Below are positions 20,929-35,302 of a stretch of 64,000 bases of DNA, piece after piece. The notes under the pieces were generated by a model. The model was not told where the DNA came from. It was given only the letters and a program-made list of their open reading frames with translations, and did no database searches. Position 1 is the first letter of the stretch; each line of letters starts with the position of its first letter. Source of the stretch: Dictyostelium discoideum (taxonomy: Eukaryota); assembly GCA_000004695.1 (NCBI GenBank), contig CM000154.2, positions 928,001 through 992,000 of the forward strand, read 5' to 3'. A program made the translations under genes and the position numbers.

Positions 20929-21500
20929 ATGATAACACTTAGAAAATCATTATCTAAAAGTTGCAAAGATTTGAGGATATTGAATGGGACAACATATGTT
21001 AAAGGGTTTTGTTCTACTACAACTACAGATACTACTACAACTACAAGTACAAGTACAACTACAGATACAGATACAAATTCTGAAAAATCCAATAAAGAAA
21101 AACTATTTCATCAAATAAATGAACTAACTAAACAGTCATCTTTTAATAAAGTTTTATTTTATAAAAAATCAGCACATGAAACCGAGGGTTATAGTTATAA
21201 AGAACGGCAACAATTTAAACAAAAACAACAGAAAATTAAACAAATTAAACACAATCAACAACTTAAACAAAAACAACAAATAGAGCAACAGAAACAAAAA
21301 AAACTTGAACAACAACAACAACAACAACAACTTGAACTTGAAAAAAAACAAAAATTTGAACAACAACTTGAACAACAACAAAGAGAGCAAAATCAAATAT
21401 CATTACTTGAAAAATCAAAAGATCTAGAAAGTATTAACGATTTTGGTGATTTTGATTTCCGTGAACTCGAAACAAAACCATTATTTTCTGTTCCAAATGT
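20929..21500 (+). CDS. Second large Asn/Gln-rich protein with a mitochondrial-presequence-like N-terminus, exon 1 of 2
   Basis: ATG at 20929 (MITLRKSLSKSCKDLRILNG...), a Thr-rich tract and a QK-rich coiled region. It ends ...FSVPN with donor GTAAAT at 21501, phase 2. Confidence 0.6.
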
Positions 21501-21601
21501 GTAAATATTACTTTTTTTTTAAATATTATTAAAGTTTAATGTAATATTAATTTTTTTTTTTTTTTGTTACATATTTTTTTATTTTATATATATATATACA
21601 G

Positions 21602-22931
21602 ATTAATTAATTATTTAGAAAATGAAAAAACATTATCAGATCATCAAAAAAGTGATGTAGTTGGATCATTTTATTCAGATGGAGAGATACCATCTGTACC
21701 ACATATCAATTTGGAAGAGTACACAAGATCCGTATTAATTGAAGCATATTTAGAAGTTTGTAAACCGGAATATGCATTTTACTATTTCAAACAGAGTGAA
21801 AATAATAAAACCAATTCAAAAGGTTTATTATTAATGATTGAATTTTATATTAAAATTGGTGATATTGATTCAGCTTTTAAATTTTTTGAGGTCAATTTCA
21901 AGGATTATAAAGATTTAATTAGTACAAATGATTATTATAAATTATTCAATGGATTAATCACCTATTCTATCGATAATCAAGAAAATATATTTGATATTAA
22001 AAATAAATTTTTTAATGTAATTATAAATGATAATATTAATAATGATATTGAAAAATTTAATGTTGGTTCATTAGCTTCAATGATTGAAAGTATAACACCA
22101 AAATATCAACCACCACCACAAGAACAACAATTAATGGATGATGATAGTAATAGTAATAGTAATAATGATAGTAATAATATTATTAAAAACAGTAGTAGTA
22201 AATTAGAATTTAATGATGATTGTGTTAGTAATTATAAAAAGTTGGTGAATTTTGATCAACTTTATTCAATTTATAAAAATAATTATAAAAAATATACAAG
22301 TGATCAAAGATTAATTATTTTAAGTTGTATACTTAAATATTCAATTATTACAGCCGATATAGAATTATTTTTGAATACTGTAAATAGAGTTTTGGTGAAA
22401 GATGGTATTGAAAAGGTTGAAATTCCAATTCTTCAAATACTTTTTGAAGCTTACACACACACAATACCATCGGATAAACCAGAGTTGGTGGGTCAATTAA
22501 AATATTTGTTAACAAATTACATCAAAGATATGGATTCATCTGATAATGGTTATAAAAGTATATCAAAGTTAATCGCATATAATTTCTCATTCAAAGGTGA
22601 TATAAAAAATTCAATTTATGATCAACTATGTGGTATTGGTATAAAATCAATTGAAATCGATATTGAAAATAATATTGAAAATAGTGTATTAATAAATAAA
22701 CTTAAACAAGAACAAAGAGAAAAAGAACGTAATCAGTTTATTATATTTATACAATCAATATTTCCTGAAGATAGAATTCAACATTTTGTAGAAACAGCTT
22801 TAATATATTTAATAAATGATAATAGTTATCAAGAAGCAGTTAAACTTTATATATATTTTTTAAAAGAAGGTTCAGTTACTGGTATTGATATATTTTTAAA
22901 ATATCATGAATTATCTTATAAAAATATAGTT

Positions 22932-23010
<79 letters not shown>

Positions 23011-23310
23011 TTAAAAATTTTACAACTTTTAGTGAAAATGATCATAAAACTTTAAAAACTTTTTGGGAAAGAATAAAAAATAATTATGTCAATAATAATA
23101 ATAAACAACAACAACAAGAAGAAAGAGATATTGAAAATGAATTTATATTTATTGGAAAAGGTGAAATTAATAATGATCAGCTTTTAGAAAAATTTCAATA
23201 TATTAAAGAATTTAGAAATATTAAATCATTTTTCAATTCATATGAAGAAAATTTAAATCCAAATGATTTTATTAATTATATTAAAAACATTATTAATAAA
23301 GTAAATGATG

Positions 23311-23368
<58 letters not shown>

Positions 23369-24644
23369 TGATGATGATGGTGGTGGTCATGGTGGTGGTG
23401 ATGTTTTTAAAACTACAACACCAAAAAAGGTAAAACCTTTAATTTCAACTATTCAAAAATCACAAAATGAATTACCAACAACAACAACATATAAAGAGAT
23501 AATAGAAAATACAAGTTTTTTTAGAAATCAACAATATAATTTTAATCGAGAATTATCATCAACTCTTAATAGTCCAAAATCTAGATTAGATTTGGAAAGA
23601 TTACAAAGCTTTTTAAATTGTAAAAGTCATACAGAAAGTATGAGTTTTCAACAACTTTGTATATGTTTAGAGTTAGTTGGTGATACTGGTTTTAAATATG
23701 ATTTTTATAAAAATTTAAATCATATTCAAAAAACCTTGATTATAACTCCTCAACTTTGTAAAAATCTCTTCTCAACGGTTACCATGGATGAGTCAATTGA
23801 TATTTTGAGAAGAGGTTTGTCAAGAATTTCACCAGAAAATTTGAAGAGTCTTGGTATTTGGGATGGCGTATTCCAAGGCTTGCTAAAAGATCCTCTCAAG
23901 ACTCCATTGGCCAATTTCCTCATGTATAATGGATTTATATCAAAATCATCATTTGATAGGTATTCCTATTGTCAACAAATCATAAACACCGATATCGATG
24001 CATATTATTTCTTTTTAGATCCATCGATTAGTTATTATGATACCTTTGGTGGTGATATAGAAGATGCATCAAATTACAACCTTAAAAAGGATAGCTCAAA
24101 AACCTTTTTTAAACCAATGGAAGATTTCTTTATAACTTATCTTGACACTTTCTTTAAAGCATCCTCTCCCCATGAAATAAGCCAAAGACCTGATTATCAA
24201 ACTCAATTTTCAAATTATACTATATTAAGTTTAATCCGTCTAGGTAAACTAAATGAAGCATTTAAAGAAATTGAATCTTTATCACCCGCTAAATATAATG
24301 CCACAACAATAGGATTGGTAGTTTTTATTTATAGTAAAAGGTATAAACAGGATAAATCGAAATTCCTTGTAGAAATTCAATCATTAATTCAAAGAATAAT
24401 TTTTGATCTAGAAAATAAAATGGGTAGTGAAGATGCCAGATCTTACTTTCATAAATACATTCTCAAATCGTTAATTATTAATTATGGTAACATTGAAATG
24501 GATAATCTTATTGCAAACGTTGATGTTCCAAAAGTTTTAAAAGATATTGATAACTCTTTAGCTCCAAATTTCGATCGTCGATTAATTAGAAAATTATTCA
24601 AAGTTCGTGGTTATATTAAATATAGATTTTACCGTTTAAATTAA
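21602..24644 (+). CDS. Second large Asn-rich protein (about 1204 aa in total), exon 2 of 2. Helical-repeat regions (TPR/PPR-like?) carry poly-Asn and poly-Asp/Gly inserts.
   Basis: Acceptor ...atatatacag at 21599-21601. gt+A gives Val, then LINYLENEKTLSDHQKSDVVG... continuous with ORF 21564..24644. Repeats such as LIEAYLEVCKPEYAFYYF, MIEFYIKIGDIDSAFKFF and LIRLGKLNEAFKEI are suggestive of TPR/PPR-type helical hairpins. Confidence 0.6.
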
Positions 24645-24716
24645 TTTTATCATTATTATTATTCATTGGAAAATAAATATAATAAAATAAAATAAAATAA
24701 AATAAAAAAAATAAAA

Positions 24717-25190: not shown

Positions 25191-28100
25191 ATGTTAAAAC
25201 ATATTAAAAATTTTTTAACTAGAAAAGAAGAAAGAAAAGAAAAAGAAGTAGAGAAATTAAAAGATGGAGTATCAATAACTGAGGTTAAACAATCGAACCT
25301 AGTAGTTTATTCATGCAATGGTTGTGGATCAGAGATATGGCCACCAAAACAAGAGAGATATGCATGTAATGAATGCTCAAATTTCGATTTATGTAGTGAG
25401 TGTTATAGAAAAGAAATGATATTAATAAATGGTACACAAGAAGAGAAAGATAAATTAGTTAGTGGGGAGAGTAATAATGGAATAAAGTACGAGCCAGTGA
25501 GACATTATGATCCATCACCATTACCTCATCAATTAACATTAGAGAATGAGACTCAATTTCAATTAGTTTATAGTTTACGTGGTAATTCAACATTTGAAAC
25601 AATGGAGAAATCATTTAAATACTTTAAAAACAGACCATGTCTTGGTATTAGAGAGAGATTAGGAGAGGATAATGTTTTATCAGAAAGATATAAATGGTTA
25701 ACATATGGTGAAGTGTATGAGAAATCTTTAACCTTGGCAAAGGCATTAACTAATTTCATCGAAAGAAGAGATTTCATTTCAATCTATATGGATAATTGCT
25801 TAGAATGGTATTTCACAGATTTTGCATCATTATGGGCCGGATTAATAGTGGTACCATTACATCATGCTTCAAATAGTTTTAATCTTTTAGAGATTCTTTG
25901 GAATTCCGAATCAAAATGTATAGTTTGTTCTGGTGAATCATTTAAAAATTTAATAGAACTTTATGATCAATTGACTGAGCAAGATAAATTAGAGAAACCA
26001 ATAGTGTTGAAATTGATAGTTCATAAGGAGGATCTATTCGATCAGTCATTAGTCGATAGATTGCCAAGTGGCGTAGAATTTAAAACTTTCAATGAGATGA
26101 TTAAAATTGGGGAATCATTAAGTCAGGCTAAATATGAATTTGTCCCAGTTGGTCCAAATGATCTTTCCTCGGTGACTTATACAAGTGGTAGTACTGGTGT
26201 ACCAAAAGGTGTAATGAAGTTAGATTCAATTTTCAATTTACTAATTGTCAATTCCTATGTTCAATTCCCAAATGCAGTTTATAGTTATAATACCCTATCA
26301 CATAGTCAACGTTTAAGTGATTGGAGATATATTTATATGGGTGGTAGAGTAGCTATCTATTCAGGTGATATGAATCTATTATTTGAAGATTTAGCCTTGG
26401 TTAGACCTCATTCATTTTGGGCTGTACCAAGATTTTGGAATTTATTATTCACCCAGTTCAAGAGTGATCTAAAGCAATACATGTTTGAAAATCCACAATT
26501 GGATGAAAGAACTGCCACACTCTATTGCTATAAAGGTATTAGAAAGTTATTAGGTGATAGAATTAATAATCTAGTGACTGGTGGTGCTCCGACTGCAAAT
26601 GAAGTACTCAAATTTATGAGTGATTGTTGGAAAGATATAAACATTTCAAATTCTTATGGTTTAACTGAAGTATCAGGTGTTTGTATAGATGGTTATATCT
26701 CTGACGAAGTAGAATTCAAAATTGAACCAGTACCTTCTTTTGGATATTACCCAACTGATTTACCACATCCTCGTGGTGAATTGGTTGTAAAATCATCAAC
26801 AATGTCTGCAGGTTATTATAAAAATACTCAATTAACTTCAGAATCATTTGAAGGTGGTTGGTTTAAAACTGGTGATGTCGTAGAATTAATTGGAGTTAGA
26901 AAAGTTAAAATCATTGATAGAATTAAACATGCCTTCAAATTGGCAAATGGAGAATTCGTTACACCAGAACCATTGGAAAATAATTTCGTTTCACTTTGTA
27001 TTAATCAAATTTTTATTTATGGTAATTCACTTAAAACATTTTTAGTTGCAATTGTTAAACCATCACAAGATTGTTTAAAACAATTAGGACTTCAAGATAT
27101 ACCAATCGATCAATTAATTGAAAATCCAACTTTAAAATCAAAACTTTTATCAGAGATTAATAAAATTTCAAAAGAAAAAAAACTAGCAAATTATGAAATT
27201 CCAAAAATTATTACAATAGATTTCACTGAATGGACAATTGATAATAAATTAATCACTGGTTCTGGTAAATTTAATAGAGGTGAATTATATAAATTTTATA
27301 AAATTAAAATTAATAATATGTTTGATATAATTGATAAAATTCAACAAGGTTTAAGAAATAATAATAATAATAATAATAATGATAATATTAATAATAATGA
27401 TAATAATAATAATAATGAATCAAATAAAGATAATTTTGAAAATTATATAAAATCAATTTTAAATTTAGACGGTAGAATTGAAGATAATAATTTTAATTTA
27501 GAGAATTTATCATTTATTCAAATTGGTGGTGATTCGTTAGGTGCTGTTAAATTATCATCACTTTTAAAAGAAAAAGAAAATATTGATATTTCACCTTCAA
27601 CAATTTTAAATCAAAATTTTAATTTATCTTCATTATCGAAATTAATAAATGAAAAAGAATCAAATCAATCAATTGTTGAAGATTTTAAAGAAAATTTTAA
27701 AATCAATTGGAATGAAGAGATGATTTTAGATGAAGATATTAAAAAATCAATTGACCAAATTAAAAATGCACAACCATCATCAACTCCCTCTTCATCAAAA
27801 TCAACACCATCACAATCATCATCATCACCACCACCATCATTAAATTCAAATAATATTGGTCAAAATGCTTTTCATATGAAATCAATATTTATTACAGGTG
27901 TTACAGGTTATTTAGGTACATTTTTATTATTTAATTTATTAGAGGATAAATCAATTGGTATTGAGAGAATTTATTGTTTAGTTAGAAATGTAAAGAATGA
28001 AGAAGAAGGTTTTAAATTAATTGAAAGAATATTTGAAAAATCTTGTATCAATGGTATGAATGAAAAGATTAGAGAAAAGGTAATTCCAGTTTGTGGTGAC

Positions 28101-29006
28101 TTATCAAAACCATTTTTCGGTGTTTCTACTGAAACCTTCAAAATGTTATCTTTAGCGGTCGATATGGTAATTCACAATGGTGCCATTGTTAATATGGCCT
28201 ATCCATATGCGAATATGAAATCAACAAATGTTACATCAACTCGTGATATCCTAAGATTATGCACTACCGGAAGAGCCTCTTTTAAAAAGTTGGTCTACGT
28301 TTCAACAGTTGGTGTATTCTTTGGAAATGGTGATGAAAAGATAGATGAATCAACAGCACCATCAACTTTCTTTTTAGATCATGGTAATGGTTATAACCAA
28401 ACAAAACTAATATCAGATATACTTGTTAGAGAAGCGGCTTCATATGGTTTACCAACAATGATTTTCAGACCAGGTACAATCTTTAGTCATACCCAATCTG
28501 GTTTCAACAATCAAAATGATTCAATCGGTTTAATAATTAAAGGTATCCTAGGTTCGAGTTCCTATCCAACTAAAAAAGATTACTCTAGTGGCGATTTAAA
28601 TCTTTCACCAGTTGATTGGGTATCATCTTCAATGGTTTCTTTAATTAAGCATCTTCCATTTTGGTGTAATAATACAAAAATTTATCATATGGTAAATGAT
28701 AATCGTTTATCTTTAGATTTGCTATGTCAATATATAAATAAAGAAAAACAATTAGAAGAAATTAATTATTTCGATTGGATCGATGCTCAACTTAATTCTT
28801 CAAATAATCCATTGTATTCTATTAAACATTTATTTAAAAAGAATGATCGTTTCCCAATTGGTTCTCAGTCAATTAAAAATCCAAAAACTATTAAAGATTT
28901 AGAATCAATTGGTGAACTTCAATGTCAACCAATATCTGATTCCACAGTAATCAATTATGTAAAATATTTAATCTCAAATAATTTAATTCAAACAATTAAT
29001 AAATAA
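25191..29006 (+). CDS. ZZ-type zinc finger + adenylation (AMP-binding) + phosphopantetheine-binding (thiolation) + thioester-reductase (NAD-binding) enzyme, i.e. a carboxylic-acid-reductase / single-module NRPS-like A-T-R protein (about 1271 aa)
   Basis: ZZ finger: YSCNGCGSEIWPPKQERYACNECSNFDLCSECY. A-domain motifs: TYTSGSTGVPKGVM, GGWFKTGDVVEL, IDRIKHAFKLANGEFVTPEPLE. Carrier domain: IQIGGDSLGAVKLSS. R domain: FITGVTGYLGTFLLFNLL (GxTGxLG), YNQTK (YxxxK). The track ORF starts at an alternative TTG at 25185; the first ATG is 25191. Confidence 0.8.
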   Translation: MLKHIKNFLTRKEERKEKEVEKLKDGVSITEVKQSNLVVYSCNGCGSEIWPPKQERYACNECSNFDLCSECYRKEMILINGTQEEKDKLVSGESNNGIKYEPVRHYDPSPLPHQLTLENETQFQLVYSLRGNSTFETMEKSFKYFKNRPCLGIRERLGEDNVLSERYKWLTYGEVYEKSLTLAKALTNFIERRDFISIYMDNCLEWYFTDFASLWAGLIVVPLHHASNSFNLLEILWNSESKCIVCSGESFKNLIELYDQLTEQDKLEKPIVLKLIVHKEDLFDQSLVDRLPSGVEFKTFNEMIKIGESLSQAKYEFVPVGPNDLSSVTYTSGSTGVPKGVMKLDSIFNLLIVNSYVQFPNAVYSYNTLSHSQRLSDWRYIYMGGRVAIYSGDMNLLFEDLALVRPHSFWAVPRFWNLLFTQFKSDLKQYMFENPQLDERTATLYCYKGIRKLLGDRINNLVTGGAPTANEVLKFMSDCWKDINISNSYGLTEVSGVCIDGYISDEVEFKIEPVPSFGYYPTDLPHPRGELVVKSSTMSAGYYKNTQLTSESFEGGWFKTGDVVELIGVRKVKIIDRIKHAFKLANGEFVTPEPLENNFVSLCINQIFIYGNSLKTFLVAIVKPSQDCLKQLGLQDIPIDQLIENPTLKSKLLSEINKISKEKKLANYEIPKIITIDFTEWTIDNKLITGSGKFNRGELYKFYKIKINNMFDIIDKIQQGLRNNNNNNNNDNINNNDNNNNNESNKDNFENYIKSILNLDGRIEDNNFNLENLSFIQIGGDSLGAVKLSSLLKEKENIDISPSTILNQNFNLSSLSKLINEKESNQSIVEDFKENFKINWNEEMILDEDIKKSIDQIKNAQPSSTPSSSKSTPSQSSSSPPPSLNSNNIGQNAFHMKSIFITGVTGYLGTFLLFNLLEDKSIGIERIYCLVRNVKNEEEGFKLIERIFEKSCINGMNEKIREKVIPVCGDLSKPFFGVSTETFKMLSLAVDMVIHNGAIVNMAYPYANMKSTNVTSTRDILRLCTTGRASFKKLVYVSTVGVFFGNGDEKIDESTAPSTFFLDHGNGYNQTKLISDILVREAASYGLPTMIFRPGTIFSHTQSGFNNQNDSIGLIIKGILGSSSYPTKKDYSSGDLNLSPVDWVSSSMVSLIKHLPFWCNNTKIYHMVNDNRLSLDLLCQYINKEKQLEEINYFDWIDAQLNSSNNPLYSIKHLFKKNDRFPIGSQSIKNPKTIKDLESIGELQCQPISDSTVINYVKYLISNNLIQTINK

Positions 29007-29062: not shown

Positions 29063-31227
29063 TTATTTGTTTTCTGCCAATTTTTTTAATTTTTTATCGA
29101 ATGATTTAGTAAATCTAGATTCACGATGTTTTTTAATAATGAAATAGGTTATTGAAAAAATAATAACAGCAGCAAATCCTACTGATCCAATAATGATACC
29201 AATTAGTTGTGTTGTGGTTAACTTTGATTTACTTTTACAAATTGAATATTCTTCATCATTTGAAACTGATTTTGAATCAATTAAAACTGAAAAATCAGGA
29301 TCTACAATTATAGATTGTTTATAATTTGGAATGGTAATACCTATGAATGATTGTGATGTTGATGGTGTTTTTATTGTTTCCATTGAAGAATCTAATAAGA
29401 CATTATCAATGGATCTAACATAATTATCAATAATAGCACGTTTAATAAATCTTCCATAAAGTGAATGATCATCAATTTGAATTTTGAAATAGTTTGAATT
29501 GTCATCCTTTGAACTATCACCAAATTTTGTTAATGAGCAAATATCATTATTATTATCAGTTTCGAATGATGCAGACATAACTAATTGTAGTTGATTTAAA
29601 CTATTTGAAAATTTATATTCCGAAATTTCAATTGTATATTTCACACTAGATGCATCAATAGTCATTTGAGAATTTGCAAAGGAAATGTTTGTTGAATCTT
29701 TAAACCATTCAATATTTACTGTTATTGTTGTTGTAATATTTTCATTTAAAATCATTGCTTCATATTTACTTTTAGAATTTGTTATTGTGGTAAAAATCCA
29801 TTTTTCAAATGTGAATGATTTGATTGGTTTTGATTGAAAATCTAATTCTCTTAAAGATACAATTGATATTAATGATTTAAAAATGTAATAATTTGTTGTT
29901 TGGTTATTGTTGTTTGTATTGTTATTGTTTCCAGGTATAATTGGAATTTCAACAGTTGGTGTTGATGTATTTGTTGATGGTTGTGGAATGATAATAACTT
30001 GAGAACCACAATCAATACCAACCCATGGTTGATAACAAATACAGCCTGATTGTGAACAATAACCTTGATTCTTACCACCACATTCAGGTTCACCTATACA
30101 TTTTTGTGGCTTATTTGTTGGGATTGGAGATAAAGTTGGAAAAATTGTTGGTGGTGGATATTTAAAAACTTTTGGAGTTACCACAAAATGATTTGATTCC
30201 TTATTATTAATAACTATCGGACTGCTATCGACAATTTTAATTATAAATGGTTTATCTGTTGGTTTTATATCTTCAATTAACATGGTAACTCCATATACTT
30301 TAGTTGGTTGAGAAATTTGTGAAAAATCTGTATCTGAATAGTATTTAATATGAACAAGTTGATTTGGACCAAATTTTGTACCCATTATCCATAGCTTATT
30401 TCCAGTCGAGGTAATTTTAGTAGTACCCTCAATAAATAATCTTTCTACTATCGGTAAATCGGGTATTGAATAAATGAAAGAACTATTCTTTAAACATTCA
30501 GTTGAATAACCACTAAAATAACCACCGTTATTAATAAAACCATAAACACTAAAAATTATATCTTGTTTATATCCAAAAGCATATGGAATGTCAATATCAC
30601 AAGTAAAAGTTGCAGTTGAATTGTTTTTGTATAATAATTTTGATTTCCCTTCAATCACTCTTAAATAACCAGTTGAAATATAAACAGTTGGAAATTGTTC
30701 ATCTTTTAAACCAGTATCTTCATCGAAAACTTGAAAATTAAAAGAAATAATTTGGGAACCATCACTATTAACAGTTCTATTGGCTTCAAATGATAAAAGA
30801 ACTGGAGGTGATTCATCTATTCCATCATTAACACCAATACATTGTTTATATATTCTATTGATTTCAGAGTCATTCAAATAATTGATGAATGGATTTGTTA
30901 ATAAATTGACTGCTTTCCAAGTTGAAAATTGATTTAAATTCAAAGATCTATCCCATAATTCAACATCTGTAATTAAATAGTATTGTGATGCACATACACT
31001 TGATAATGTAATATTAATTTCGTATTCACCCAAATAAATATCACCTTTAATTATATGGTTTTCATTTAAATTAAAAGTATAAATTGAACCATCCATTTCA
31101 CCTCTTACAACAATTTTTCCTTTTAAAAATCCATTAATAGGGTCACTAATTACAAACCTAAAACCAATATAATTACCATTATTAATTTTAATAACATTTT
31201 CAAATATTGGACCATATGCATCAAAAT
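29063..31227 (-). CDS. Type I transmembrane glycoprotein with IPT/TIG-like and EGF-like modules (Tgr-family-like?), exon 6 of 6. This exon holds the EGF-like Cys cluster, the TM helix and a short basic cytoplasmic tail.
   Basis: EGF-like cluster: KCIGEPECGGKNQGYCSQSGCICYQPWVGIDCGS. IPT-like segment: PIVERLFIEGTTKITSTGNKLWIMGTKFG. TM helix: LIGIIIGSVGFAAVIIFSITYFII. Tail: KKHRESRF. Acceptor aaaag at 31228-31229; phase-1 entry. Confidence 0.6.
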
Positions 31228-31318
31228 CTTTTGAAAATTATTTTTTAAAATAGATATATATTGATGGGTTAGAAAAAAAATATTAATATTAATATAATTA
31301 TTAATTAATTATACATAC

Positions 31319-31978
31319 AAGTTGATTTTATTCTTAATTGATAAGAATCAGGTAATACTTCACTAATTAATGGTACACCATTGCCAATCATTAAAATCCA
31401 TGGAAAGTTACCTAATTGAGTGTTTGCCGGTACTGTAAATTGAATTTGAAACTTTGAAATGGTTGAATTCCAAGTACCAAAAGTAATGTTGTTAATTTGA
31501 TATAATATTGATACATAATCACTTAAAATGAATATAATTGGAGTATTTGTATCGATTCCATCATAATTAAAAAATAAAATATTATCTACTGATTTATTTG
31601 TGACATCAATATCATTCAGTAAAAAGGAAACATTATGTATAAAGTAAGAATTTAATTTTTGATGGGATGGATTAATTGTAGTTATTGGGTTTAATGAAAT
31701 AAAATCTCCAACGTTATATTTTCTAGACCTTCCTAATGTATCATAAACATCTAAACCAACAAATTCATTGGTTATATAGTCAAATACAAATTCATATAGT
31801 CCAACATCATTTTCCATTCTAACCAATGATTCAAATCCAATTACTTTGTAACCTAAATCATTGTGTACATATAAATAAAAAAAATCTTTCATTTTAATTC
31901 TTATTAAAAAGTTACAATCTAACAAATGAACCATTTCAAAAAATAAAATTTCTGGTTTCTCTCCTGTTGAGTTTATAT
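31319..31978 (-). CDS. Same gene, exon 5 of 6
   Basis: Acceptor (T)16cttttaaacctag, then AT+ATAAACTCA... in frame with ORF 31305..31934. Donor GTATGT at 31318. Both ends are phase 1. Confidence 0.55.
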
Positions 31979-32061
31979 CTAGGTTTAAAAGAAAAAAAAA
32001 AAAAAAACTAATTAGTTTTAACTTAATTTTTTAAAAAATATTTAAAAAAACAAACACTTAC

Positions 32062-32361
32062 ATTGATTTGGTAGAATATTAAAATTATCATTTTGAAAAC
32101 TATAATTATTACCTGTAGTTGAAGATTTGAGTTGTTGCAAAAATGAAACTTTGGTTTGGAAATTAAAGTTTGTTCCATGTTTAAAACCAAATGGAAAATA
32201 AAATATTTTTTGTATTTGTTCTGTGATGCATCTAATCATTGTATAATCATATTTACGTGTTGAATTTCCAAACAATGTGAAAATGAAAGTATTTACTAAA
32301 TTTGTTTCATTCGGTGGTGTATATATAATATTAAATTTCCCACTAATATACAATGGTAACT
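32062..32361 (-). CDS. Same gene, exon 4 of 6
   Basis: Acceptor tatatag, then AG+TTACCATTG... (ORF 32042..32371). Donor GTAAGT at 32061. Both ends are phase 1. Confidence 0.55.
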
Positions 32362-32480
32362 CTATATACAAACAAAAAATATAATAGAAAAAATATAATA
32401 ATCGGGTATCATTTAAGAACTATTAATAAATTGGAAAAAATAAATAATGATTTGTTATTTTTTAAAAAAAAAAATCCTAC

Positions 32481-32783
32481 CTGTCATATTATAAGTTATA
32501 TTAAAAATTGGTAAAAATTTATCATCATATTGACAAAAAACTGTAACATGTGAAGGATAAAATTCTGAAAGCTTTCCTAAATAAGTTAAATCTCCATTTT
32601 TACTTTGGTATATTGGAACTGGACGATCCACTGAACTCGATTGGCCAATACTATATATAAATGGATTTTTATTGGTTGCATTTGATGTAAACTTATAAAG
32701 AGGAAAAGTGTTTACTCCATACTGAATAAAATTGTCAATTTTCGAAGGATACGTTATAATTTGGGTATTTTTATTATTGGAAT
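32481..32783 (-). CDS. Same gene, exon 3 of 6. It is not in the ORF track because it lacks any start codon.
   Basis: Manual translation of the minus strand gives DSNNKNTQIITYPSKIDNFIQYGVNTFPLYKFTSNATNKNPFIYSIGQSSSVDRPVPIYQSKNGDLTYLGKLSEFYPSHVTVFCQYDDKFLPIFNITYNMT. Acceptor aaaaaaag at 32784-32785, donor GTAGGA at 32480. Both ends are phase 1. Confidence 0.5.
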
Positions 32784-32903
32784 CTTTTTTTAAAAAATAA
32801 AAAATAAATTAATTATTGTGCTAATTTTTAAAAACAAAAATAAAAATGAAAATAAAAAATAAAAAAAATTAAAATTAAAATAAAATTAGCTGGTAATACT
32901 CAC

Positions 32904-33188
32904 TTTTATAATCAACCTGAGGAAAAGTGATATTTATATAATTTTCATCCCAAAACAAAATATTTAAAGAATTATACTCATTAAAATTTATTGTTGAATA
33001 AATTGCAAAGAAACTCATTCCTTCTCCAAATGTACTAGTGTATGAATTATTATTAGATGGTGTATATATACTTTGAATTGGAGATTTTACATTAAAAAAA
33101 AATACTGCTCCCATATTAAAAATTGAATTTGAAGTTGAGTTATTATTATAAGTAAACACGGTATAATTTAATGTTTTGGGATCAATCA
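32904..33188 (-). CDS. Same gene, exon 2 of 6
   Basis: ORF 32875..33189 (N-glycosylation-sequon-rich: NYT, NNST, NIT). Acceptor ataaag then TG+ATTGAT; donor GTGAGT at 32903. Both ends are phase 1. Confidence 0.55.
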
Positions 33189-33286
33189 CTTTATATTTTT
33201 TAATTTTGATTAAAAATAGTAAAATATTAATATATTTATATTAGTTTTTTAATTTTATTTTATTTATTTATTAATTTTTTACAAAC

Positions 33287-33683
33287 ATTGACAAGAATAA
33301 TTTATAGTTATACTATTATTTATTGAAGAATCATTTGAAAAACTTGTAAAAATGGTTGGTGAATAATTTCCAGCAAAAACATGGTAAACTTTTACTCCAA
33401 TTACTTGTGCTGTTGAATTAGAAAATAGTGGTGTAAAATTTATACTTGGTTCAAAATCAATTGTATAAACATTGAAATCTTGTCCACTATTTGAATTATC
33501 TACCAATAATAAAAAAAATACAAAATCACATTGTGTTTCATATGTGTCTGAGGGATATCTTGTATATGTGTCAACTTTTTTTTTTGAAATATCATATATA
33601 TCAATTATTGAATTTTCTGATTTTATTTTACAAAAACAAAAAACAAATAAAATTAATAGAAAAATAATAATATTTTGTTTCAT
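33287..33683 (-). CDS. Same gene, exon 1 of 6, with the signal peptide (MKQNIIIFLLILFVFCFCKIKSENS...)
   Basis: ATG at 33683 followed by a hydrophobic signal peptide. Donor GTTTGT at 33286 after ...NYSCQ(C); phase 1. Confidence 0.6.
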
Positions 33684-34124: not shown

Positions 34125-34966
34125 TTATTGTTGTTGTTGTTGTTTTTTTTTTATATTTTGATTAATATTTTGAGTTTCACCATCCTTTAAACCAATTTTA
34201 ATCATTTCTGCAGAATATTGGAAACCTAAAATATAACCAGGAAGTTTTTGACCGGGAGTATAGATGTTTAAAGTTGCATTTGGAAAAGCCATATAAACAT
34301 TTTCAATATCCTTTAAATGAAAGTTTTTTGTGATTATTGAACTTTCACGCATTAAAACTTCAATGGTATGCATTGAAGAAACATTTTCCATTGGTTCTAG
34401 TGGACCCATTAAAATTACATCGACTATAACATCGGTTGCACCAGTGTCATAACATAAACGAACGGTATCTGTAATTGGTGTCATATAACTAACACCACCA
34501 TCACAATAGTTATAACCATTCTTTGTAATCATTGGAAAAACCGCTGGTACAGAAGAGGAAGCTACAACACCTAAACATATATCTGGGTCTGTTTTGTTGA
34601 ATCGATTGAAATCACCTGTATCAATATTTGTTGCACCAATGAGAAATCCTCTGTCTGATTGTAATAGACTTGTAACATTTACTAATGTTGTCATTAAATT
34701 TAATAATGGTGTTGTATCGAATAATCCGGATTTAAATAATAATCCTTCGATTGGACCATCTTTCCAATTAACATAAACATCATCTCTTGTAATACTTAAC
34801 CATTGTTTCTCTAAAAAATCACGTCCACTTGTTTCGTCACCTACTGAAAACATTGACATACCAATTGCATTAATACTACCAGCTGATATACCTGTTGCGA
34901 ATTGCCATTTATAATCTTCAGGTTCTCTTACATTTAATATACCCATAACAACACCTGCTTCCCATG
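34125..34966 (-). CDS. Patatin-like phospholipase (about 319 aa in total), exon 2 of 2
   Basis: GISAGSINA (GxSxG nucleophile elbow) and CDGGVSYMTPI (catalytic DGG Asp) are present. Acceptor tatatag at 34967-34969; phase 1. Confidence 0.8.
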
Positions 34967-35184
34967 CTATATATAAAATTTTTTTTTTTTTTTTTTGTTT
35001 GTCAATTTTATTTTATACTATTTTATTTTTATTTTAATTTGAATTTAATTTAATTTAATTTTATTTTATTTTGTTTATCTGATTTTATTTTATTTATCTT
35101 ATTTTATTTTATTTTATTTTATTTTATTTTTATTTCATTTTATTTTTATTTTATTTTATATTTTTTTTAATTTAAAAAAATTAC

Positions 35185-35302
35185 CTCCTCTATCTCCTGC
35201 TCCTGAAAAAGTAATTGCTCTGCATGTTGTTGATTGGGAAAGAACATTATCAATAAATAATAAAAAACATGAAAGTAATATTATTTGTGCATTTTTTATC
35301 AT
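35185..35302 (-). CDS. Patatin-like phospholipase, exon 1 of 2: signal peptide plus the oxyanion-hole Gly-rich motif
   Basis: MIKNAQIILLSCFLLFIDNVLSQSTTCRAITFSGAGDRG, then donor GTAATT. Spliced, this gives FSGAGDRGAWEAGVVMGIL (patatin GGGxRG...G motif). Confidence 0.7.

Follow-up and report, generated by a model that had tools for sequence, protein, structure and literature searches.

Uniformly phase-1 introns in a predicted ComC-like receptor gene of Dictyostelium discoideum

Introduction

The organization in which extracellular modules are encoded by symmetric exons lying between two phase-1 introns (1-1 exons) is, reportedly following Patthy's work, usually deemed characteristic of animal extracellular proteins. 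Here, we describe a gene organized in this manner in a stretch of 64,000 nucleotides (nt) of Dictyostelium discoideum DNA (assembly GCA_000004695.1, contig CM000154.2, positions 928,001 to 992,000 of the forward strand; hereafter the window), where it occupies positions 29063-33683 of the minus strand. A preliminary description of this locus, made from the sequence alone, had reconstructed a six-exon gene for a secreted or transmembrane (TM) protein, had read its uniformly phase-1 introns as a footprint of exon shuffling and had likened the product to the Tgr/Lag family of kin-recognition proteins.

Three described systems offer points of comparison. In the sponge Amphimedon, 154 of the 155 introns in the aggregation-factor genes (AqAFs) are in phase 1, against a genome-wide distribution of 44:36:20, and the encoded domains respect exon limits despite low similarity among the repeats (PMC5400394). 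Within the dictyostelids, ComC combines EGF domains with a signal peptide and a TM segment and occurs only in group 4 species (PMC4931340), and a comC mutant shows aberrant aggregation (PMC2873529). TgrC1 is a glycoprotein that spans the membrane once, with a large ectodomain and a short tail (PMC4404348), and a passage of the same article, citing Chen et al (2013), describes Tgr proteins as interacting via IPT/TIG domains. Set against these systems, the window gene is probably a ComC-like receptor gene whose N-terminal array derives from duplicated symmetric 1-1 exons, followed by patchy intron loss.

Results

The window gene encodes a predicted ComC-like protein

The six minus-strand segments join into 4110 nt, corresponding to 1369 codons plus a stop, with zero internal stops. 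Over its full length, the joined protein agrees at every residue with XP_636932.1 / EAL63427.1 / UniRef100_Q54JJ9, which is titled 'EGF-like domain-containing protein [Dictyostelium discoideum AX4]' and has no further gene name in the source databases. The gene model is correct but was already annotated exactly as reconstructed.

By its Pfam domain content, the gene is predicted to belong to the ComC-like family, because DUF7035, DUF7034, DUF7949 and the ComC supersandwich domain (ComC_SSD) all score far above their cut-offs (Table 1). The order of these four domains was the same in all paralogues scanned. For the window gene itself and its cluster, database annotation additionally lists a precomputed N-terminal match to DUF8390 (PF28405), whose region corresponds to the six variable N-terminal modules (amino acids (aa) ~20-648). 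Every relative with a traceable source is from a Dictyostelium species, and the family so far appears to be confined to dictyostelids.

The product is predicted to be a type-I, heavily N-glycosylated cell-surface protein whose ectodomain strings together Ig-like beta-sandwich modules. At the N-terminus there would be six variable ones; the conserved stalk near the membrane would then comprise, in order, DUF7035, DUF7034, a weakly TIG-like sandwich, an EGF-like knot and the ComC supersandwich, ahead of the TM helix and a short basic tail. By analogy with what is reported for ComC, the protein may have a role in cell-cell adhesion or communication during development; if family membership is a guide, the faster-evolving N-terminal array would bind ligand and the conserved stalk would serve as scaffold.

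Several family members were seen next to one another. Two full DUF8390-type paralogues lie side by side at one locus (L003, 3001-7545 and 8761-10545+), and family members adjoin each other in D. purpureum (L005, 1-692 and 2001-6545), where a neighbouring 1208-aa gene carries only DUF7035, DUF7949 and ComC_SSD, without DUF8390 and DUF7034. P0023, at 2686 aa, is roughly double the normal size for the family, and two stretches of it match the N-terminal block, which reflects either a true fusion or the merging of two tandem paralogues during gene prediction.

Introns are in phase 1 throughout the family

All five introns of the window gene are in phase 1, each splitting a codon after its first base. 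We threaded each annotated protein of ten ComC-like genes (orthologues and paralogues) exactly through its genomic locus, with GT..AG introns, and found that 51 of 51 introns were in phase 1. There were five in each of the window gene (AX4), its D. firmibasis orthologue, the second D. discoideum isolate and the paralogues P0006 and P0019; the remaining paralogues had seven (P0022 and, from D. purpureum, P0035), six (P0036, also D. purpureum), four (P0016) or two (P0025). The earlier claim that the uniformly phase-1, symmetric exons are non-random holds up, and the pattern is conserved in all ten genes.

The positions are shared as well as the phase. All but one of the 51 introns fall into seven common alignment columns, at residues 133, 228, 329, 429-433, 536, 649 and 1293 (window-protein numbering). 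The window gene has five of these seven and is without 536 and 1293. At the residue-536 position, which lies inside window exon 5, P0022, P0036, P0025 and P0035 have an additional phase-1 intron, and P0022 and P0019 have one at the residue-1293 position. The intron-1 column is occupied in nine of the ten genes. The missing subsets of introns differ between paralogues. In the simplest history, the subfamily ancestor would have had no fewer than seven introns, every one in phase 1, placed between the N-terminal modules, where DUF7035 begins and where ComC_SSD ends, and individual lineages would later have lost some of them.

The five splice junctions of the window gene appear to be supported, on comparative grounds only. 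Seven gene models from five Dictyostelium taxa (the window gene, another D. discoideum isolate, D. cf. discoideum, D. citrinum, D. firmibasis and two relatives at 52% identity) gave a gapless alignment over all five junctions. Reading through any of the introns leads to a stop within 2-9 codons, and the introns contain 85-94% A+T vs 73-78% in the exons, in an A+T-rich region of Dictyostelium-typical composition. In the same 90% cluster, the protein fragments P0012-P0015, which come from Logan assemblies, are open reading frame (ORF) calls on unspliced genomic contigs and are uninformative on splicing. As had been remarked before, five introns is an unusual number: it lies in the upper tail of the ~33 neighbouring genes with solved structure, nearly all of which have 0-3.

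Two features of individual introns may be recorded here. First, intron 1 varies in length, from 98 nt in AX4 to 222 nt in D. firmibasis (L001 6398-6619) and 277 nt in the other D. discoideum isolate (L011 10398-10674), while introns 3-5 are far steadier; such differences between orthologues are to be expected of non-coding sequence. Second, P0035 has an extra 63-nt phase-1 intron at residue 408 (L012 3288-3350), beside an 84-nt exon and unique in the family, which may be a gene-model artefact given that its length is a multiple of three. The annotated N-terminus of P0035 also looks truncated, with only 78 codons in exon 1.

Exon limits coincide in part with domain limits

Three intron positions coincide with Pfam domain limits: 429-433/536 (DUF7743), 649 (DUF7035) and 1293 (ComC_SSD). 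In the window gene, P0036, P0022 and P0019, position 1-2 of the DUF7035 profile begins 1-2 residues past the intron-649 column. DUF7743 occupies the exon between positions 433 and 536 (in P0025, exon 460-567 vs a match extrapolated to ~460-572) and is recognized in P0036, P0025 and the distant members P0007 and P0008; the first half of exon 5 in the window gene is the counterpart of DUF7743 in P0022, P0036, P0025 and P0035. ComC_SSD ends ~4 residues past the intron-1293 column.

For the N-terminal region, we used an AlphaFold model of residues 20-790 built from a 29-sequence alignment (an earlier model, from 7 sequences, was unusable, with a predicted local distance difference test score (pLDDT) of 31). 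This model is all-beta, with a pLDDT of 84 and a predicted template modelling score (pTM) of 0.80. It has 6-10 strands in each segment delimited by an exon, and all intron positions fall in inter-strand loops. Each N-terminal exon thus appears, in the model, to encode about one Ig-like sandwich, and exon 5 two. For positions 133, 228, 329 and 429, the predicted agreement with domain boundaries comes from these loop positions and from the strand counts per exon, which for 133, 228 and 329 are 6-9.

Duplication within the gene, shuffling between genes, or chance

The N-terminal array would have arisen by tandem duplication of a symmetric 1-1 exon encoding one sandwich each, a process within the gene that is the intragenic form of exon shuffling. 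The copies would then have diverged until their sequence similarity was nearly erased, with paralogues losing different introns. One pair of modules still resembles each other: in a comparison of 21-sequence profiles with hhalign, the first module of exon 5 (5a) matched DUF7035 with a probability of 70% (E-value of 4e-5) and a shared G-YE...Y-I-V-L-D-GN motif, and both modules start directly after a phase-1 intron. For the two-domain units, 5a+5b vs DUF7035+DUF7034, the probability was 29%. Ancient intragenic exon duplication combined with intron loss fits better, and is preferred here, over both shuffling between genes and coincidence.

Classical shuffling between genes would make the exons mobile 1-1 modules that came from, or went to, unrelated genes by recombination in introns. 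The uniform phase 1 and symmetric exons of the window gene and its paralogues would be expected under this model too, as would introns at the limits of DUF7743, DUF7035 and ComC_SSD. Architecture also varies within the family, as in the D. purpureum neighbour mentioned above and in distant members that have DUF7743 but receive no DUF8390 call. Mobile extracellular domains of animals favour phase-1 introns (PMC3488318), and the phase-1 introns of the sponge aggregation-factor genes have been read as a sign of shuffling (PMC5400394). However, when aa 1-648 were searched exhaustively with phmmer in 1.84 billion cluster representatives, only 22 proteins matched, nearly all of them co-linear over ~5-647, ~1350-1420 aa long and of the same architecture, and the few short ones look like fragments. 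Among these matches there was no exon-sized N-terminal module in an unrelated protein, which speaks against shuffling between genes. In addition, the N-terminal region of the window protein has no Pfam match to any widespread module, and five stalk domains lie in one exon. We therefore consider shuffling between genes unlikely. Of the exon-shuffling claim in the preliminary description, the non-random symmetric phase-1 exons stand, but modules moving between genes are not supported, the block having turned up in this search only in proteins of the same architecture.

The other alternative is coincidence or a neutral bias, in which the phase would be shared by chance, or through insertion sites that favour phase 1, and would have nothing to do with modules. 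As no Dictyostelium-specific intron-phase distribution was found in the literature (the pooled eukaryotic phase ratio is 5:3:2; PMC2834692), we used gene span and product length to reconstruct the exon structures of annotated genes nearby. Unsolved or ambiguous genes were left out or settled by donor consensus, and the patatin-like neighbour was counted once. The 29 control introns comprised 13 in phase 0, 10 in phase 1 and 6 in phase 2 (phase 1 ~0.34), so phase 1 is locally not rare. With a phase-1 frequency of ~0.30-0.36, five of five introns in phase 1 have a probability of ~0.002-0.006 (0.009 with a beta-binomial allowing for the small control), and any single uniform phase in five of five has one of ~0.03; taking the window gene by itself, a few such cases could arise by chance in a genome of ~12,000 genes. 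Across the seven shared ancestral positions, however, the probability falls to ~0.0002-0.0008 (beta-binomial 0.002). Also against chance are three intron positions within 1-4 residues of independently defined Pfam limits, and internal exon sizes that cluster near domain size, at 95-113 codons. On the exonic side, the bases upstream of the five donors vary (CAAT, AAAA, ACAG, CAAT and ACTT), and with no common proto-splice motif among them, a shared insertion motif is not the cause of the phase-1 pattern. Altogether, coincidence or neutral bias is distinctly improbable.

Several points weigh against duplication within the gene. All other exon pairs, compared with hhalign profiles of 7 or 21 sequences, gave probabilities of at most 8%, and common descent of the N-terminal modules is inferred from shared fold, size and phase. 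The placement of the four N-terminal intron positions at domain boundaries was made from strand counts and loops rather than from a formal domain parse, and the pTM of 0.80 suggests that the modules pack together rather than forming independent beads. The five stalk domains share one ~2.1-kilobase exon without introns between them, so that a one-exon-one-domain rule would be only partial: exons and domains agree at three positions at Pfam limits and, in the model, with about one sandwich per N-terminal exon, but not in the stalk. The gene models other than that of the window gene are automated and possibly informed by AX4, and so are not fully independent. Finally, the function proposed for the protein is drawn, by analogy, solely from family membership.

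The N-terminal array evolves fast, but the gene is not Tgr-like

Between AX4 and the other D. discoideum isolate, protein identity was 93.9% for the window gene, with 91.0% in residues 1-648 and 96.5% in exon 6, compared with 97.5-98.3% for three flanking genes. Ratios of non-synonymous to synonymous substitution (dN/dS, by Nei-Gojobori) were obtained for these two isolates, and for AX4 and D. firmibasis. They were 0.375 and 0.353, respectively, in the N-terminal array, 0.196 and 0.181 in the exon-6 ectodomain (649-1320), and 0.069 and 0.143 in the flanking AMP-binding gene. Overall, the window gene had a dN/dS of 0.31 in the two-isolate comparison. Exon 2 reached ~0.95, from only 12 non-synonymous and 3 synonymous changes, and other regions were at or below 0.52. 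The N-terminal array is the fast-evolving part of the protein and plausibly its ligand-facing one. With dN/dS at 0.2-0.4 in the two isolates and against D. firmibasis, there was no sign of gene-wide diversifying selection. Elsewhere in the window, a 1204-aa gene without a Pfam domain (~20955-24670, plus strand; equivalent to L008 19014-22729) is 86% identical between AX4 and the other isolate and so diverges faster than the window gene.

The domain searches likewise did not bear out the IPT/TIG-like segment of the preliminary description. IPT/TIG (PF01833) gave no match in the window protein, either with the full protein at E-values up to 1 or with the candidate segment (aa ~904-1012) at E-values up to 10; in the same region, three of 21 family members, the window protein not among them, had weak matches (best E-value of 0.0024). 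Searched against PDB sequences, the segment had no significant match (a single one, E-value of 0.15).

It is highly improbable that the gene encodes a Tgr/Lag kin-recognition receptor or functional analogue whose variable N-terminal array discriminates strains: it shares the gross topology of TgrC1 (single-pass glycoprotein, large ectodomain, short tail; PMC4404348), has predicted Ig-like folds, weak TIG signals in a few paralogues, an N-terminal array that diverges 4-5 times faster than the three flanking genes between the two isolates, and the high dN/dS of exon 2, but its domain set is that of the ComC family, its per-region dN/dS is low outside the tiny exon-2 sample, an unrelated flanking gene is even more divergent, and its neighbours are a patatin-like gene on one side and an AMP-binding/NAD_binding_4 (reductase) gene on the other, with no adjacent partner receptor as in tgrB1-tgrC1. 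On these grounds, the window gene is judged not to be a Tgr kin-recognition paralogue, and the resemblance to Tgr/Lag proteins suggested previously is not supported.

Gene structure, protein features and locus

The coordinates of exons, introns and domains are collected in Table 1. The donors and AG acceptors listed in the preliminary description are all present, and its six-exon, 1369-aa reconstruction with five phase-1 introns was correct in both coordinates and arithmetic. Of the intron length range that it gave, 83-121 nt, the minimum was exact and the maximum is 120 nt. Exon 3 is indeed missing from the ORF list, which has just a 58-aa partial ORF there and no full one.

Table 1. Exons, introns and predicted protein features of the window gene (positions in the window; residues of the 1369-aa protein).
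Feature	Position	Strand	Residues or codons	Details
Exon 1	33287..33683	-	aa 1-132 + first base of codon 133	397 nt; start codon, signal-peptide-like hydrophobic segment (aa 5-18), first beta-sandwich module (model strands)
Intron 1	33189..33286	-		98 nt; phase 1; GTTTGT..AG; 94% A+T
Exon 2	32904..33188	-	95 codons	285 nt; symmetric 1-1; second module (model)
Intron 2	32784..32903	-		120 nt; phase 1; GTGAGT..AG; retention leads to a stop after 9 codons
Exon 3	32481..32783	-	101 codons	303 nt; symmetric 1-1; third module (model)
Intron 3	32362..32480	-		119 nt; phase 1; GTAGGA..AG
Exon 4	32062..32361	-	100 codons	300 nt; symmetric 1-1; fourth module (model)
Intron 4	31979..32061	-		83 nt; phase 1; GTAAGT..AG
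Exon 5	31319..31978	-	220 codons	660 nt; symmetric 1-1; two modules (model)
Intron 5	31228..31318	-		91 nt; phase 1; GTATGT..AG; one residue ahead of the DUF7035 start
Exon 6	29063..31227	-	aa 649-1369	2165 nt including stop; entire ComC-type stalk, TM segment and tail
DUF7035	30839..31225	-	aa 650-778	121 bits vs cut-off 27 (Pfam)
DUF7034	30464..30805	-	aa 790-903	97.8 bits vs cut-off 27 (Pfam)
TIG-like segment	30137..30463	-	aa 904-1012	no Pfam assignment
DUF7949, six-Cys EGF-like cluster	29996..30100	-	aa 1025-1059	54.7 bits vs cut-off 27
ComC_SSD (ComC supersandwich, PF22933)	29282..29938	-	aa 1079-1297	67.2 bits vs cut-off 24; profile 6-222/222
TM helix and 23-aa basic cytoplasmic tail	29066..29206	-		predicted from hydropathy and direct sequence reading

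Hydropathy of the protein peaks solely at residues 1-23 and 1320-1346. The first peak is a predicted N-terminal signal peptide, and the second corresponds to a single TM segment at aa 1323-1346 (peak of 2.64 at residue 1323) followed by the basic tail. Together with 33 N-X-S/T sequons, this agrees with the earlier description of a signal peptide, many N-glycosylation sites, one TM helix and a short basic tail. The EGF-like Cys cluster was upheld in the sense that six Cys lie at aa 1025-1055 and DUF7949 is significant, but classical EGF models all stay below threshold (for instance, EGF_TEN at 14.6 bits vs a cut-off of 65). The distant member P0008 has sub-threshold matches to EGF_2 and EGF_Teneurin.

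Synteny with the window extends to D. firmibasis and to the second D. discoideum isolate, where the locus is likewise flanked by the patatin-like gene and, on its opposite side, by a ZZ/AMP-binding/NAD_binding_4 gene. No paralogue of the window gene was found elsewhere within the window. The ZZ/AMP-binding neighbour (25191-29006, plus strand; 1271 aa) has a weak ZZ zinc-finger match, AMP-binding and NAD_binding_4/epimerase domains, an architecture like that of carboxylate reductases. It converges with the ComC-like gene, and as only 56 nt separate the two stop codons, the 3' ends must share or overlap termination signals. The patatin-like neighbour (34125-35302, minus strand; equivalent to L008 8382-9559) has a single intron, in phase 1, which measures 218 nt in D. 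discoideum and 88 nt in D. firmibasis but occupies the same position in both.

Discussion

The window gene was already annotated, and Pfam lists its family under domains of unknown function. The all-phase-1 organization of the ComC-like subfamily, with exons that appear to match Ig-like modules, seems to be undescribed, at least in the searchable literature, and we regard it as a modestly interesting parallel to animal receptor genes. The Tgr lead is corrected at the same time, with the family assignment moving from Tgr/Lag to ComC-like.

A broader proposal is that dictyostelids built receptors in the animal style, with one Ig-like domain per symmetric phase-1 exon and an array grown by exon duplication through intron recombination. 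We put this forward tentatively, as possible rather than probable. If true, ComC-like genes would be a non-metazoan case of 1-1 modular exon architecture, and exon duplication would amount to convergence with animal adhesion-receptor genes in an independently multicellular lineage, in which a recognition surface might be provided by the variable N-terminal array. With 22 matches among 50%-identity cluster representatives of all public proteins, the family is small and tractable; it shows patchy intron loss and would suit the study of how such architectures rise and decay in an intron-poor genome.

The nearest comparisons by protein are within the dictyostelids. ComC and ComC-like proteins have the same four C-terminal Pfam domains in the same order as the window protein, as well as a signal peptide, a single TM segment and a short tail. 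The window gene is linked to ComC by these Pfam domains; it is itself unnamed in databases and has no recorded phenotype. TgrB1 and TgrC1 are, like the window protein, type-I glycoproteins whose beta-sandwich ectodomain is large and whose cytoplasmic tail is short (PMC4404348), and the likeness extends to the faster evolution of the membrane-distal part, as measured here in the window gene. However, TgrB1 and TgrC1 bind through IPT/TIG, whereas the window protein has no TIG match, no adjacent partner gene and, in the comparisons made here, no sign of gene-wide diversifying selection.

By gene organization, the comparisons are with animals. Receptors of the Ig superfamily and those built of FnIII or cadherin domains have, like the window gene, tandem beta-sandwiches encoded by domain-sized internal exons between phase-1 introns (PMC3488318). 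The AqAFs, like the ComC-like genes, form a family that is restricted to one lineage and encodes large extracellular proteins for adhesion or recognition, with essentially all introns in phase 1. They differ in belonging to an animal lineage, in their unrelated Calx-beta, Wreath and VWA/VWD domains, and in having many more exons, with domains that often span three. Even so, judged by analogy, the sponge aggregation-factor family would be the closest described parallel to the organization of the ComC-like genes.

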